NCBI GenBank assembly: GCA_965221345.1
Contig: CBDCSD010000001.1
Coordinates: 1,062,455 to 1,126,454 of the forward strand
Direction: 5' to 3'
DNA length: 64,000 nt
Origin: Caldilineaceae bacterium
GTDB taxonomy: Bacteria > Chloroflexota > Anaerolineae > Caldilineales > Caldilineaceae
A program made the position numbers and the translations under genes. Positions 3,011 through 56,990 of this stretch are shown here, one piece after another. Below the pieces are notes generated by a model. It ran no database searches. It was not told the DNA's origin and worked only from the letters and a program-made list of their open reading frames with translations. Every line of letters begins with the position of its first letter. Position 1 is the first letter of the stretch.

Positions 3011-3127
3011 TTTTTCCTGGATCGGTCTTCTCCGCATTGCCAATGGCTTCTTGTCGATCTTCGCATAGCCTAATCTATTGCAGATCATCGCGGGATTCTG
3101 CTCTCTGCGGCGGCCCTTCGCTCGTTC

Positions 3128-3225
3128 TGACCACTGACCACTGACCACTGACCACTGACCACTGACCACTGACCACTGACCACTGACCACTGACCACTGA
3201 CCACTGACCACTGACCACTGACCAC
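3128..3225. repeat. Perfect heptanucleotide tandem repeat (TGACCAC)x14
   Basis: Counted directly: 14 uninterrupted 7-nt units from 3128 to 3225. The tract lies 5 nt beyond the stop codon of the oxidoreductase gene (3231) and about 120 nt upstream of the HlyD-like start. Confidence 0.97.
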
Positions 3226-3230
3226 TGGGT

Positions 3231-10227: not shown

Positions 10228-10346
10228 TTTAATTTTCCTTTAGACCGCCTCATTGAAATGCGTAACGAATATTGGGGACTCCGCCATGTATTATACAGGA
10301 ATTTCAACGATTTCGCAGTTCAGACCAGGGTATTCGCATTTGCGAC

Positions 10347-11015
10347 TTATAGAACGTTGAGAAAACAGTCCTGATTCCAGCCAGCACGTTTGCTTTTGGC
10401 TGCGATGCCGATTTTCGCGGTTTTCTGGTGGCGCAGGAAATTGAAGGTCATACGGCGATCGATAGCGATGTTATGTAGTGCATGAACTTGGCGGATGCGG
10501 CTGTCGTCACGAAAGGCGATGTCCAAGAATCAGTGGACCGAATTCTTACTTCCCCAGTGTCCATGTGTGCCAGACATGAGTTGTTTGGCAATTAGTGGGC
10601 AGACTGGAGATGAAGTGTCAATTCATAAAGGAGGTATGGTCAGGCAAACATCGTTCCCATTCGACCATAACCAGATTCTGGAGCTGTGACTATTCCCCAT
10701 ATGGGTTCATATAGTTGAGGATTGGTGGGTCGGCGGTAGCCCAGCGGCGACGGATTTCGAAGCGACCGTGGTCCTTTTCGACGGTCTGGTGGTAGTCGCG
10801 GTGGAGATGCACGAATTCTCTTTCCCGTACGCAGGTGAACATCGTGCGCACCTCATCATACAACTGGGCTTGATACTGTTGAGTGCCAGAACATAGTCGG
10901 CGCCTCGCTCGGTCGGCAACTGCGCAATCGACTCCTGACAGCCTATGGCATTGATCGTAACAATGCAGCCGGACACCATCAGCAACTGCAACAACTCGTG
11001 AAAAAAGCAATCTCA
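10347..11015 (-). pseudogene. ISAs1-family transposase remnant (3-prime part only, frameshifted)
   Basis: Pieces sit in at least three frames: LLQLLMVSGCIVTINAIGCQESIAQ..GADYVLAL; HQTVEKDHGRFEIRRRWATADPPILNYMNPYGEW; HWGSKNSVHWFLDIAFRDDSRIRQVHALHNIAIDRRMTFNFLRHQKTAKIGIAAKSKRAGWNQDCFLNVL followed by a stop. No N-terminal half and no terminal repeats were seen. Confidence 0.75.
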
Positions 11016-27738: not shown

Positions 27739-29676
27739 TCAAATCCAAGGTCCCCAGGGATCACATTTCTGCAGCCGTTCACCCAGAGCGGCGTAAATAT
27801 CGGGCAAGTCGAAGGTCGCCAGGCAGTTCTCTAACATGGTCGAGAAAGGCCAGTTGTGCAAGGGGTTGTCGATCAGCAACTGGTAGCTCGGCAGATAGTG
27901 GACAAGCTCACATGTCGGCTGAGAAGCGTGCAAAAGAGCAGCCAGCGCGACCGGTACCGAGCCGACGCCGCGGCCAATCAGATGTACCTCTGCGCCGCCG
28001 TCCACCAGGCAGTCGATCGTGCGTATCAGGTCCAGCATCCGGCGTCCAAGATAACTCTCGCCCATCATGCTGCCAAAGCTGGCATAGAGATAGTCGGCCC
28101 CGTAGGGTTCGAGCAGGTCGCTGGAACCGCAGGACGCGGGGAAGCTCTGGCCTGTCCCGCGCAGGTCGGCGGCCAGTATGCGCTGCCCCTCGCTCAGACT
28201 CCGCTGCAGCCAGGGCAGCGTGGCGCAATCCTCTTCGCTGGAAAGATGGCCGGCGTATAGAGAGACGGGCCCCCGCGGCCGGCGGCACTGGTTTTCCAGG
28301 TCGCCGAACATGGTCAGTATGACCTGAATGCCCGGTTCGCTTTCCACTGCGAATTGATAGCCCTTTCCAGTCGCTGCGTCCTGCCCGCCGCTGCGCCGCA
28401 GGTAGCGGAAGTGGGGCGCCGTGTCCGGCGCCTGTATCTGTAAGAGCCTGCTTACAGCTTCCTGTAGGCCCGAGTATTCAAGGAGGGGGCGTTGCGCTAT
28501 CAGTTCTTTGGCCCGCGCTTGCGTGAAGCCGAAGATCTTTTTACTGCCGAACGGGACCACCTCCCCTTCGGCGGCGTTGAGCTGCGTCTCCGCGATCTCC
28601 TCCATAGGAGCTTCCTGGCACTCGACGTCCAGCCCGGCATGTTTGATGAAGAAGCCGTACATCGCTTCGCGTGCATGTTTGTGAAAGCCGTGATCAAGGT
28701 GGCCGACGCTGATTTCAGCGGAATCAGGCGAACCCAGCAGGGTATGGATCTTTTTCACTTCGGCGTGCGCCTGGCGCGCGCCGCGCAGGTCGAAATAGCA
28801 GTTTTCCTCGGCCAGTATCATCGTGGGACGCGGCGCATAGGCCAGCAGCAGGTCTGCTTCGTCCAGGCCAAACGCCAGCGCCCGCGGCGGGTTCTGTTCG
28901 GCGTCAGCCGGCAGTTCATTTTCGAGGTTGCACAGCCAGCTGGTGATGAAGCAGTCCGGCGCCGCCATCGTGATGCGCGGGTCGAGGGCCGTCAACTGTG
29001 TGGTCTGGGTTCCGCCGCCGGAGCAGCCGGTGACGCCGACTCGGCTCGTGTCCGTCTCCGGCCGCTCCAGCAGATAGTCGAGGCCGCGGATGGCATCCCA
29101 GGCGAACCAACTGCCAATAAAGTCGCCGGTCAGCAACATGCGGTTGCCGATCATATTGTGGGCAACCGTCGAGCGGGGGCCTGATTCCCCTTCGGGCACG
29201 CCCTCCTCGGCGTAGAACTGGCGCCGCTCGCCCTGCGAAACGGGGTCTACAATCAGGACGGCGAAGCCCTTGCTGGCCAGCCCGCGGGCGAAGAACTGGT
29301 AGGGCCCATAAGCTTTTCCGTTTTCGGAATGGCCGCAAAGCCCGAGGACGCAGGGCAGTTCGGCGTCAAAATGCGCCGGCAAGAAAAGGTTTGCGCTGAC
29401 GAGAAAACCGGGCCGGCTCTCATAGACGATCTTTTCCAGGCGGATTTCTCCGAGATCCGACGTACCCGTTGTCCGCGCATTGAGGTCTGTTCTGGCTGGC
29501 AATGCGGGGAAGCAGCGCGCAGCCTTCGCGCGCACGTCGTCCACGTATGCCTGGGCCGCCGCCCGCGTCTGGATGGCGGCCAGCCTGTCGGCCCGCTCCT
29601 GCAAAATTCTGCGTACGCGGCCGACCGTGTACTCGTGGACCATATGGCCGTAACGATTATTGTGCATAGATTGCAT
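27739..29676 (-). CDS. Alpha/beta hydrolase (acetyl-xylan-esterase / dienelactone-hydrolase-like), 645 aa
   Basis: Nucleophile elbow VGVTGCSGGG (GxSxG) preceded by LCGHSENG. Confidence 0.7.
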   Translation of the reverse strand: MQSMHNNRYGHMVHEYTVGRVRRILQERADRLAAIQTRAAAQAYVDDVRAKAARCFPALPARTDLNARTTGTSDLGEIRLEKIVYESRPGFLVSANLFLPAHFDAELPCVLGLCGHSENGKAYGPYQFFARGLASKGFAVLIVDPVSQGERRQFYAEEGVPEGESGPRSTVAHNMIGNRMLLTGDFIGSWFAWDAIRGLDYLLERPETDTSRVGVTGCSGGGTQTTQLTALDPRITMAAPDCFITSWLCNLENELPADAEQNPPRALAFGLDEADLLLAYAPRPTMILAEENCYFDLRGARQAHAEVKKIHTLLGSPDSAEISVGHLDHGFHKHAREAMYGFFIKHAGLDVECQEAPMEEIAETQLNAAEGEVVPFGSKKIFGFTQARAKELIAQRPLLEYSGLQEAVSRLLQIQAPDTAPHFRYLRRSGGQDAATGKGYQFAVESEPGIQVILTMFGDLENQCRRPRGPVSLYAGHLSSEEDCATLPWLQRSLSEGQRILAADLRGTGQSFPASCGSSDLLEPYGADYLYASFGSMMGESYLGRRMLDLIRTIDCLVDGGAEVHLIGRGVGSVPVALAALLHASQPTCELVHYLPSYQLLIDNPLHNWPFSTMLENCLATFDLPDIYAALGERLQKCDPWGPWI

Positions 29677-29955
29677 CCTATGGAGTGTAAAGTTGAAAAC
29701 AGTTTATCCCTCAATGCCGCTCATCGCAACCCCTTGAACGAGCTTCTCCTTCCAGAACTCTGTCGCGATCAAGCCGGCAATAGCACGATGATCGAGGCAG
29801 ACTGGCCAAGTAAAAAAATGTCAGGAAGGAGCGGCAAACCAAGTGAAGTTTGAGCTATAGACCGGCTCTAGGAAGTTGCGACGGTAACCGCGACCCATGG
29901 TATGGCCCCCCCAGTCTGGATTTCAAGCTAGTAAAGAATGGACTGTAGAGATGTC

Positions 29956-30426
29956 CAGGGCAATTGCATCAAATTGGGACAAACCCACGTGAGGCTGCCT
30001 GAATCGGGTAGGGGCGCCCCTTGTGGGCGCCCTTCTCAGGGCAAAACGCCGAGAGAAGACAATAGGTAGGGGCACCCCTTGTGGGTGCCCTTTACAAGGC
30101 AAAACGCCGAGAGAAGACAATAGGTAGGGGCACCCCTTGTGGGTGCCCTTTACAAGGCAAAACGCCGAGAGAAGACAATAGGTAGGGGCACCCCTTGTGA
30201 GTGCCCTTTACAAGGCAAAACGCCGAGAGAAGACAATAGGTAGGGGCACCCCTTGTGGGTGCCCTTCTCTAGGCATAGCGCCGAGAGAAGACAATAGGTA
30301 GGGGGCACCCCTTGTGGGTGCCCTTCTCTAGGCAAAACGCCGAGAGAAGACAATAGGTAGGGGGCACCCCTTGTGGGTGCCCTTCGTCGGCTATTTTGGC
30401 GTCCGAATTAAGATGCGTTTGCCCTG
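29956..30426 (+). mobile_element. Inverted-repeat-bounded non-coding element (MITE-like), copy 1, containing a tandem array
   Basis: Left arm CAGGGCAATTGCATCAAATTGGGAC. The reverse complement of the right arm is CAGGGCAAACGCATCTTAATTCGGAC, an imperfect roughly 26-nt inverted repeat. Both arms recur at 56736-56990. The element is flanked by GTAGAGATGTCC and GTAGAGGTGTCC. Confidence 0.6.
30007..30385 (+). repeat. Tandem array: six 58-59-bp units plus a partial seventh, each with an 8-bp-stem hairpin
   Basis: Unit starts (GGTAGGGG) at 30007, 30065, 30123, 30181, 30239, 30297 and 30356. Each unit contains GGGCACCC-CTTGT-GGGTGCCC followed by (T/C)..GGCAAAACGCCGAGAGAAGACAATA. Confidence 0.95.
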
Positions 30427-30510
30427 TAGAGGTGTCCCGGCACCATTGACCAGGTCCGATTTACGCGGTATAAATGGGGCAATCCCTGCATGAATGAGAA
30501 GGAGATCGGT

Positions 30511-31200
30511 ATGCCAAGCCCCTTCCCCGGCATGGACCCATACTTGGAGCACGACGGACGCTGGTCGGACTTACGCCAGCGCCTGATAGTCTATATTTCT
30601 GAATCGCTTCGACCTCAACTGAGGCCGAAGTACATTGCACAAATTGACGTGAGGATTGAACATAGACCACAGGGCAAGGGGGAAGAACGACGGATTCCCT
30701 ATCTTCGAATTGTCAATCTCCCATCTGGGGACGCGGTCACAATGATTGAGGTACTGGGTCCAGCCAATAAGCAGGGGAGCGGAAGAGACCGGTATTTCCA
30801 ACTGCAGGACAAACTGCTCAACTTGCCGGTCAACCTGGTCGAAATCGATCTTCTGTCGAGGCCCACCACAACCTCTGCCCGCTTTTCAGAGTTGCACTCC
30901 CCCCATGACTGGCGATACAACATTTGCATCAATCGCCCTCAAAAGCATAGGGGTGTGGAAGTCTACGCGATTCCCCTGAGAGACCGGCTTCCGCGCTGCA
31001 AGATTCCCCTGCTACCGGAAGATGATGACGCTGTGCTGGACCTGCCTGCCATTCTTGCGCGCTGTTACGAGGTCGGCGGCTATTACCTGCTGCTTGACTA
31101 CAGCAAACCGCCGCCGGTCCCGTTGAGCAAGGCCGAGGAAGAGTGGATGGAAGCGTTGCTCCTGGAAAAGGGCTTGAGAAATAGGCCTGTTCAGCAATAG
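30511..31200 (+). CDS. DUF4058 family protein, internally deleted copy
   Basis: MPSPFPGMDPYLE.. N-terminus and IEVLGPANK..VNLVEIDLL core, with GAGAAGGAGA upstream. Compared with the neighbour it lacks about 38 residues, including the VPDVLVV strand. Confidence 0.8.
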   Translation: MPSPFPGMDPYLEHDGRWSDLRQRLIVYISESLRPQLRPKYIAQIDVRIEHRPQGKGEERRIPYLRIVNLPSGDAVTMIEVLGPANKQGSGRDRYFQLQDKLLNLPVNLVEIDLLSRPTTTSARFSELHSPHDWRYNICINRPQKHRGVEVYAIPLRDRLPRCKIPLLPEDDDAVLDLPAILARCYEVGGYYLLLDYSKPPPVPLSKAEEEWMEALLLEKGLRNRPVQQ

Positions 31201-31430
31201 GTTCGAGATGAAATCTCAAAACGTTGTCAAGATGCTCTGCTTTCAATTCAACCACCAGCGGATTCCTGAAGGAATAAGAATATTCATTCGTTCATGATTC
31301 GGAAGCGGCCAAGCCATGTCAATGACGTCGAACTGGGGCGGAGAGAAGGGTCCCTGCGTTTTCATTGCACGTTATCGGGTCGTGCGACCCAACAGACATT
31401 TCAAATGGCAAGAGCGTACAGGAGATAAGT

Positions 31431-32228
31431 ATGCCTAGTCCTTTCCCCGGTATGGACCCATACTTGGAAAAACGCTCAATTTGGCCTGGCCTGCATCTGC
31501 GCTTGCTCTACAATATCTCAGAGGCTCTTCAACAGCAGGTGCGCCCCAAATACATCGCCAACATTGGGGAACGGATTGAACTTGAGACTCTGAATAAGGT
31601 TTATGTTCCGGACGTCCTGGTAGTCGGGCCGTCCCGAGAACTGGCGGAGACGCGAATTTCTTCGGGCGCGCTCGTTGCCGACGAACCACAGACAATTAGT
31701 GTTTTGGATGAAGAGCGCCGCGTTCCCTATCTTGAAATTATCTATCGCGAGACGGGTGATGTGGTCACGGTGATAGAAGTATTGAGTCCAACCAATAAGG
31801 AAGGCAGAGGGCGAGATCAGTATCTTGAGAAGCAGGATGAACTGCTCAGTTCACCGGTCAATCTGGTTGAGCTCGATCTCCTGTCAGGGCAGCCTGCGAC
31901 TTTTGCCCGTCTCTTCGACATTAATGCCCCCCATGACTGGCGTTACATCATCAGCGCTAGCCGCCCCCAGCGGCGCAATCAGGTGGAAGTCTACGCGATC
32001 CCGCTGAGAAACCGGCTTCCGCGCTGCAAGATTCCCCTGCTACCTGAAGATGATGACGCTGTGCTGGACCTGCCTGCCATTCTTGTGCGCTGTTACGAAG
32101 TCGGCGGCTATGACCTGCTTCTTGACTACAGCAAACCGCCGCCGGTCTCGTTGAGCAAGGCCGAGGCGGAGTGGATGGAAGCGTTGCTCCTGGAAAAGGG
32201 CTTGCGAACAGCGCCGGCGCAGCAATAG
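31431..32228 (+). CDS. DUF4058 family protein (full-length; PD-(D/E)XK-like)
   Basis: MPSPFPGMDPYLEKRSIWPGLHLRLL.., VYVPDVLVV, VIEVLSPTNK, VNLVELDLL and C-terminal LLDYSKPPPVSLSKAEAEWMEALLLEKGL. AGGAGA upstream. Confidence 0.85.
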   Translation: MPSPFPGMDPYLEKRSIWPGLHLRLLYNISEALQQQVRPKYIANIGERIELETLNKVYVPDVLVVGPSRELAETRISSGALVADEPQTISVLDEERRVPYLEIIYRETGDVVTVIEVLSPTNKEGRGRDQYLEKQDELLSSPVNLVELDLLSGQPATFARLFDINAPHDWRYIISASRPQRRNQVEVYAIPLRNRLPRCKIPLLPEDDDAVLDLPAILVRCYEVGGYDLLLDYSKPPPVSLSKAEAEWMEALLLEKGLRTAPAQQ

Positions 32229-56735: not shown

Positions 56736-56990
56736 CAGGGCAATTGCATCAAATTGGGACAAAACCATGTGAGGCTGCCTGAATCGAGAAGGGCGCTCAC
56801 AAGGGGCGCCCTTCTCAGGGCATAACGCCTAGTACTGTGCAGATCGTAGTGCGCTATCGCAAATTCCATACGTCTTTGGCGACTGGAGGCCAGTTTCTTG
56901 GCCGGAAAAAGAAGACAATTGGTAGGGGCGCCCCTTGTGGGCGCCCTTTGTCGGCTATTTTGGCGTCCGAATTAAGATGCGTTTGCCCTG
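56736..56990 (+). mobile_element. Inverted-repeat-bounded hairpin element, copy 2 (no tandem array)
   Basis: Same left arm (CAGGGCAATTGCATCAAATTGGGACAAAACCATGTGAGGCTGCCTGAATCG) and same right arm (GTCGGCTATTTTGGCGTCCGAATTAAGATGCGTTTGCCCTG) as copy 1. It holds two GGGCGCCC-type hairpins, one of them inverted, and about 80 nt of unique interior. Confidence 0.6.

Follow-up and report, generated by a model that had tools for sequence, protein, structure and literature searches.

The BOX elements of Streptococcus pneumoniae (Croucher et al. 2011, PMC3049150) are built as boxA-(boxB)n-boxC. Non-coding elements of another kind, the MITEs derived from DDE-type IS, include Correia/NEMIS, RUP, Nezha and MITEAba12. 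In the table of REPs given by Nunvar et al. (2010, PMC2817692), the form is GTAG followed by a GC-rich palindrome. Finally, the direction in which mobile DNA lies has been related to replication: Gomez et al. (2014, PMC3971601) reported skew-linked orientation in several IS families, including IS200/IS605, with ISAs1 showing only a weak tendency, towards the leading strand.

Here we analyze a tandem array of hairpin units in a 64,000-nt stretch of a Caldilineaceae genome (the window). We conclude, with a probability of roughly 0.88, that the array is the interior of a MITE, a tandemly amplified module within an element derived from an ISAs1-family IS.

Results

A tandem array of hairpin units

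TRF places a tandem array at positions 30007-30385 of the window (+ strand), with a period of 58 bp, 6.5 copies, 95% matches, 0% indels and a score of 642. This bears out an earlier note on the same DNA, which had described about six and a half 58-bp units with a near-constant 33-nt segment. Each unit begins with GTAG and continues into a hairpin with a 9-bp stem and a 4-5-nt loop, followed by a linker that is 33 nt long after six of the seven hairpins and forms a second, weak hairpin. On reading the sequence, the hairpin GGGGCACCC-CTTGT-GGGTGCCC, said to be identical from unit to unit, is indeed present in all seven (30011-30032, 30069-30090, 30127-30148, 30185-30206, 30243-30264, 30302-30323 and 30361-30382), and both of the variants that had been pointed out, GTGAGTGCCC in unit 4 and TCTCTAGGCATAGC in unit 5, can be seen. 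No ORF spans the array, as had been claimed; the only ones that extend into part of it are two on the minus strand, 65 and 67 aa long. Because the unit length is not a multiple of 3, the array cannot encode a repeated peptide.

The array is enclosed by a mobile element

The units and hairpins of the earlier description are real, but the array does not stand alone, and the description lacked the flanking arms, the inverted repeats and the 10-bp duplication. The array sits inside a complete MITE of 471 bp (29956-30426, + strand; C1:1092410-1092880 in the genome), made up of a left arm, seven hairpin modules and a right arm. The left arm is 51 nt long (29956-30006, +), its first ~26 nt, CAGGGCAATTGCATCAAATTGGGAC..., being the left terminal inverted repeat. 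The right arm, of 44 nt (30383-30426, +), ends in the right terminal inverted repeat, ...GTCCGAATTAAGATGCGTTTGCCCTG. Comparison of the flanks identifies a 10-bp target-site duplication, with the left copy, TAGAGATGTC, at 29946-29955 and the right copy, TAGAGGTGTC, at 30427-30436, the two differing by one mismatch.

When 26 hairpin clusters were aligned with their flanks, the boundaries were sharp on both sides (left CAGGGCAATTGCATCAAATTGGGACAAACCCACGTGAGGCTGCCTGAATCG, right CCCTTCGTCGGCTATTTTGGCGTCCGAATTAAGATGCGTTTGCCCTG), and the edges of the MITE in this alignment read CAGGGCAATTGC... and ...GCGTTTGCCCTG. The ends are imperfect inverted repeats of ~26 nt, as is apparent when the left end, CAGGGCAATTGCATCAAATTGGGAC, is set beside the reverse complement of the right end, CAGGGCAAACGCATCTTAATTCGGAC. 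The window holds a second copy of the MITE, 255 bp long (56736-56990, +; C1:1119190-1119444), with two hairpins 135 bp apart and a degraded duplication.

A family of MITEs in the genome

We searched the whole genome, which comprises 5.88 Mb in 2 contigs (C1 and C2) at 58.5% G+C. The 58-bp unit occurs at 140 places and is thus a genome-wide family, with arrays of the window's unit at 13 further loci. Allowing up to 4 mismatches, we found 229 copies of the hairpin core in 89 clusters, with the consensus GTAG-GGGCRCCC-CTTGT-GGGYGCCC. BLAST with both arms returned 60 left and 60 right ends, which combine into 47 complete MITEs of 108-1339 bp. A 10-bp duplication is perfect at 17 of these 47 and has at most one mismatch at 29.

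The complete MITEs vary chiefly in the number of hairpin modules, from 1 to 22. In the minimal form, of ~121 bp, a single GTAG-hairpin lies between a left arm of 51 nt and a right arm of 47 nt. Larger MITEs differ in both the number and the type of module: besides the 58-bp unit there are units of 46, 53 and 57 bp and a 'long' unit of 128/135 bp, which is always found at the 3' end. All hairpin arrays run head-to-tail on one strand.

Two observations concern unusual copies. At C1:1560217-1561681 and C2:1834043-1835040 there are complex nests where a MITE-like left end comes back every ~340 bp, accompanied by N-terminal fragments of an ISAs1 transposase; these may be tandemly amplified IS/MITE hybrids. 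Two 314-bp MITE copies, at C1:23536-23849 and C2:1693119-1693432, share identical flanks over 150 bp or more in both directions, which indicates either a segment duplicated between the contigs or strain heterogeneity in the assembly.

The parent is an ISAs1-family IS

Among 31 genomes of the genus, 17 contain ISAs1 matches at E <= 1e-30, and full-length matches without stops were found at ten loci in nine genomes. The sister-species IS is 1253 bp long and has a 397-codon open frame that scores 437-447 bits against NF033564 (ISAs1 transposase), for which the cut-off is 70. Seven intact copies that we examined measure 1251-1254 bp, and four of them are flanked by perfect 10-bp duplications. Across these seven, the left end, CAGGGCAATTGCATCT(A/T)AATTGGG, is identical to that of the MITE over 15-24 nt. 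The right end, ...AAGATGCG(A/T)(A/T)TGCCCTG, is likewise that of the MITE, with the last ~18 nt matching. Beyond ~25 nt from each end, the interior of the MITE is unrelated to the IS. Intact copies are carried by G019, G001, G002, G003, G012 and others; the four copies in G019 are identical, suggesting that the element is active.

CAGGG... ends and duplications of 8-10 bp are typical of the ISAs1 family, and the IS of the sister species has CAGGGC... ends and a duplication of 10 bp. Because the termini and the duplication length are common to both elements, we conclude that the MITE is the non-autonomous partner of an ISAs1-family IS.

A search of the MITE's own genome for an intact transposase with MITE-matching ends yielded decayed remnants only. 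A few decayed elements with MITE-like ends contain fragments of an ISAs1-type transposase, one of which matches PF13808 (E = 9e-6, below the curated cut-off). The sole near-complete ISAs1 gene (C2:3591540-3592486; NF033564, E = 8e-90 by hmmscan) is frameshifted and has different ends (CAGGGCTATAGTGAAC...). A second copy of ISAs1 in this genome is matched by both PF13808 and PF01609. With its matching transposase decayed, the MITE is probably immobile in its own genome now.

The window also contains a decayed transposase remnant of the ISAs1 family, at 10326-11000 on the minus strand (C1:1072780-1073454), with NF033564 fragments and in-frame stops. It ends in ...ATGCGAATACCCTG, a diverged form of the right end of the MITE and IS.

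Insertions and array growth among related species

Searching other genomes extended the family beyond this one: 23 of 24 same-genus genomes carry the MITE family, and in 16 other families of the class it is almost absent. At the locus orthologous to the window's copy, the nearest species, G022, has the same insertion and the same duplication, within flanks that are 94-96% identical, and it has 17 hairpins in place of the 7 found here. Three species more distant than G022 (G023, G042 and G024) have an empty site, with the alignment running straight across the junction.

Units resemble their neighbors most closely. Within the genome studied, identity is 0.93 between adjacent units, 0.90 within arrays and 0.84 between arrays, and for the linker alone it is 88% within an array compared with 79% between arrays. 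This likeness within arrays, together with the private variants that arrays carry, argues that units are gained and lost locally once the element has inserted. Direct observation covers the termini, the duplication, the multiple copies, the IS, the empty sites, the difference in hairpin number at one locus and the likeness of units within arrays; the MITE behaves as a modular variable-number locus.

These findings fit a simple sequence of events. An ISAs1-family DDE transposase would move the MITE in trans, recognizing the shared termini (CAGGGCAATTGCATC...) and making 10-bp target duplications. Once inserted, MITEs with at least two hairpin modules would gain or lose units locally, presumably by replication slippage or by unequal recombination between the 25-nt direct repeats of the hairpins. 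The outcome would be a variable-number array, such as the one that has 7 hairpins here and 17 in G022. At this locus the MITE appears to have inserted 19 bp ahead of the -35 box in a promoter-like motif that was already present, where it looks like a passenger.

A REP-like hairpin inside and outside the MITE

The hairpin of the array has the form of a REP, with a GT[AG]G head, an imperfect palindrome, an extragenic position and its 229 copies. It is also not confined to the MITE. Of the hairpin clusters, 40 are not part of a complete MITE; about 21 of these have unrelated flanks, and arrays outside the MITEs show other periods, of 46, 53, 57 and 70 bp.

Changes in the stem tend to preserve pairing. 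At stem pair 10-22 we counted 20 GC, 16 AU and 9 GU pairs, so that pairing is kept through changes on both sides, and in five sequences CG has given way to GC at pairs 11-21 and 12-20. The covariation score of the stem is 0.194 compared with 0.116 for shuffled alignments, and none of 500 shuffles scored as high. Since the compensatory changes come from few lineages, we take this covariation as moderate evidence only; it hints that the hairpin itself may be constrained.

A search for a Y1/RAYT transposase (PF01797) was negative for all 31 genus genomes, this one and 30 others, and positive for E. coli and five other named control genomes. The alternating or inverted arrangement of BIMEs and REPINs was also absent, all arrays being head-to-tail on one strand. 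With no RAYT in these 31 genomes and only head-to-tail arrays, the hairpin is REP-like yet lacks a defining feature of REP systems.

MITEs and hairpins are oriented by GC skew

We express orientation by the sign of the GC skew rather than by leading or lagging strand. In all 47 complete MITEs, the left-to-right strand, which is the sense of the ancestral transposase, lies on the C-rich strand of negative GC skew: 36 are '+' in negative-skew DNA and 11 are '-' in positive-skew DNA. There is no exception, even within local skew inversions, and the minimal one-hairpin MITEs follow the rule as well. The top strand of the MITE is itself slightly G-rich, so the rule is not an effect of composition. 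In other genomes, where skew was taken from noisy 8-kb windows, 17 of 22 MITE copies fit, and the five misfits all have an absolute skew of at most 0.047.

The autonomous IS does not share this behavior. Ten intact copies in six sister genomes divide 5 to 5 by skew, and the transposase is therefore not what gives the MITE its bias. Solo hairpins, which lie outside any MITE in unrelated flanks, fit the rule in 20 of 21 cases. In our rough gene calls we found no strand bias of genes with skew, and the tRNA genes showed none either (15/14). Two other candidate explanations were rejected. Neighboring genes are only weakly linked to the orientation of the MITE, with the downstream gene co-oriented in 30 of 47 cases, and when we looked for 7- or 8-mers skewed in the manner of KOPS that might underlie the polarity, only generic G-rich words came up, with no sharp motif.

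A rule without exception among 47 copies is unexpected for a DDE-type MITE that is scattered passively, and it counts against a plain MITE reading. Selection, or a strand-specific process, on the REP-like hairpin cargo is the likeliest cause; we favor the cargo because the parent IS is not polarized.

Two further classes of repeat in this genome are also oriented. Intergenic arrays with a 48-49-bp period (relatives 91-140 bp; consensus CTCCGCGGCCCTCCGCGGACAAAAAGGTGTTAAGGTGTT, unit CTCCGCGG...) form a larger second family, in which 38 of 39 are oriented by the local skew. Examples lie at C1:701299-702210, C1:1669488-1670763 and C2:1976350-1976894, none of them inside the MITE finding. Heptamer arrays, represented by 78 TRF rows of period 7 genome-wide, include one in the window at 3127-3227 (CTGACCA x14.4). 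Their commonest classes are ACCACTG and ACTATCC, and they are reminiscent of the STRR repeats of cyanobacteria. In 73 of 77, the C-rich version is on the C-rich strand of the genome.

Relating skew to replication gives mixed signals in this genome. The dnaA gene (C2:1404626-1406098) is near a plus-to-minus skew switch and has three near-consensus DnaA boxes just upstream, and skew switches lie at C2:~1.24 Mb and ~3.555 Mb. Both 16S genes (C1:507899 and C2:1424302) lie on the + strand where the skew is negative or neutral. The positions of dnaA, the DnaA boxes and the 16S genes would mean a C-rich leading strand; one copy of tuf is on the G-rich strand, which argues against this. Two readings fit: an oriC located away from dnaA, or a C-rich leading strand in this lineage.

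Is the hairpin, rather than the MITE, the active unit?

The polarity raises the most serious alternative to our reading. The active unit might be the REP-like GTAG-hairpin, spread or maintained through a fork-linked process on single-stranded DNA, in the manner of REP/RAYT and IS200/IS605. The ISAs1-type arms would then be one carrier among others, and the arrays a direct-repeat analogue of the BIME with a possible host role in protein binding or chromosome polarity. The GTAG and GC-rich palindrome form at 229 copies speaks for this view, as do the clusters in unrelated flanks with array periods of their own, the compensatory stem changes, and a skew rule obeyed by 20 of 21 solo clusters and 47 of 47 MITEs when the autonomous IS stands at 5 of 10. 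However, PF01797 is absent from this genome and the 30 others of the genus in spite of positive controls, and head-to-tail arrays are unlike alternating BIMEs or inverted REPINs. Moreover, the window copy has a clean 10-bp duplication outside ISAs1-type termini, from which we infer that it arrived by DDE transposition and not by insertion of a hairpin. On balance we regard this alternative as improbable, though worth keeping in view, and prefer the ISAs1-derived MITE.

The DUF4058 neighborhood

Outside the MITE, 19 bp downstream, the sequence reads as a promoter-like motif, TTGACC and TATAAA with 17 nt between them (30446-30474, +), which may be the promoter of the DUF4058 gene that follows. 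It was missed by a consensus promoter scan, since the -10 hexamer has A at position 6. The first DUF4058 gene (30511-31200, +; Pfam PF13267, E = 1e-56) is a neighbor that lies outside the element. It belongs to a tandem DUF4058 pair at 30511-32228 and matches the Pfam model in two stretches, without positions ~69-99.

The earlier note had offered an insulator or terminator stack in front of these genes as one role for the array. In its broader form, the proposal is that the array is a functional multi-hairpin RNA or a stack of this kind that regulates the downstream DUF4058 genes, and we consider it very unlikely. Its position 19 bp upstream of the promoter-like motif would suit such a role, but the species with an empty site (G023, G042 and G024) keep both TTGACC-17 nt-TATAAAT and the DUF4058 start codon. 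Genome-wide, the only DUF4058 genes are the two at this locus, compared with 47 MITEs whose neighbors are unrelated genes in every arrangement, and the link to DUF4058 was rejected on these grounds. The number of units, 7 and 17 in close species, also speaks against regulation. As for termination, a search of 29600-30700 found no terminator-like site on either strand, and the hairpins are trailed by TTCACAAGG or TTCGTCGG, not by a T-run. Nor does the array resemble a described RNA: Rfam 15 gave no match in the whole window at the gathering score (the best sub-threshold hit has 20.5 bits against 50) and nothing credible in 29600-30800 at permissive E-values. The predicted fold of the array is strong, at -236.9 kcal/mol with z = -10 relative to shuffles, but this is expected of any tandem palindrome regardless of function. 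The window copy of the MITE probably has no host function, and a protein-binding or RNA role of the array is possible.

Finally, the regular spacing is all that favors an assembly artefact (a collapse or expansion stutter) or a degenerate CRISPR, and either can be set aside, as the earlier note had done, given the substitutions private to single units, the unit arrays at 13 other loci and in independently assembled genomes, including the sister genome with 17 hairpins, and a strong hairpin per unit within a 58-bp unit that is 95% identical throughout, with a constant 33-nt linker incompatible with the variable spacers of a CRISPR.

Discussion

With the array placed inside an ISAs1-derived MITE, it should be annotated as a repeat of a mobile element and not as an RNA gene or regulatory array. 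The element adds a documented pair of ISAs1-family MITE and IS for the poorly studied Caldilineaceae (Chloroflexota). It also provides a clean example, outside the streptococci, of an arm-(module)n-arm element with variable module number, which could serve for strain typing in metagenomes. In a full-text literature search we found neither a published account of an ISAs1-derived MITE nor one of this element, and a search for MITEs with internal tandem repeats did not return the window's element either.

A polarized MITE beside an unpolarized parent separates the contribution of the transposase from that of the cargo. Additionally, the MITE, the solo hairpins and two other repeat classes are all polarized, which points to a strand-asymmetric force on intergenic repeats, one that known RAYT biology does not account for. 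A more speculative idea, to which we give a low probability, is that a genus-wide GTAG hairpin, whether solo, in arrays or in MITEs, is held in fork orientation by a process that requires neither RAYT nor the ISAs1 transposase. If so, the process could be a novel strand-specific enzyme acting on single-stranded hairpins, or selection. In the latter case, the hairpins and the 48-49-bp and heptamer arrays would serve or disturb some function linked to replication, for example chromosome polarity or the processing of the lagging strand. On this idea the MITE would be a carrier that persists or is lost according to how its cargo is oriented.

How, then, does the element compare with known systems? 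It resembles the replication-oriented IS of PMC3971601 in that orientation tracks the local sign of the GC skew and not the direction of genes. It departs from the ISAs1 pattern reported there, since here the autonomous ISAs1 copies show no bias and the MITE a bias of 100%, and two unrelated repeat classes are biased as well. With REP, BIME and REPIN sequences (PMC2817692) it shares the GTAG head, a GC-rich imperfect palindrome of ~22 nt, an extragenic location, hundreds of copies and frequent higher-order arrays. Unlike them, it has no RAYT/Y1 in 31 genus genomes, its units stand head-to-tail with a fixed linker, and about half of the hairpin clusters ride in a DDE-type MITE.

The likeness to the DDE-IS-derived MITEs (Correia/NEMIS, RUP, Nezha and MITEAba12) is closer. 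They too have terminal inverted repeats and a duplication of the parent's length, and are non-coding and intergenic, with tens of copies and empty sites in relatives. What differs here is the ISAs1 parent, the tandem REP-like modules inside and the uniform orientation by skew.

The parallel with BOX (PMC3049150) extends furthest. Both BOX and the MITE are small, non-coding and interspersed, with terminal modules whose inverted repeats resemble the ends of a resident IS. In both, an internal stem-loop occurs in variable tandem number, the long arrays are the most variable between strains, and the internal module folds largely independently of the arms. The two are unrelated in sequence, belong to Firmicutes and Chloroflexota, respectively, and have units of 45 and 58 bp; strict orientation by GC skew is a feature of the MITE, and the passages of PMC3049150 used here mention none for BOX. 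In architecture and behavior the MITE is closest to the pneumococcal BOX, and by mechanism it is an ordinary DDE-type MITE.
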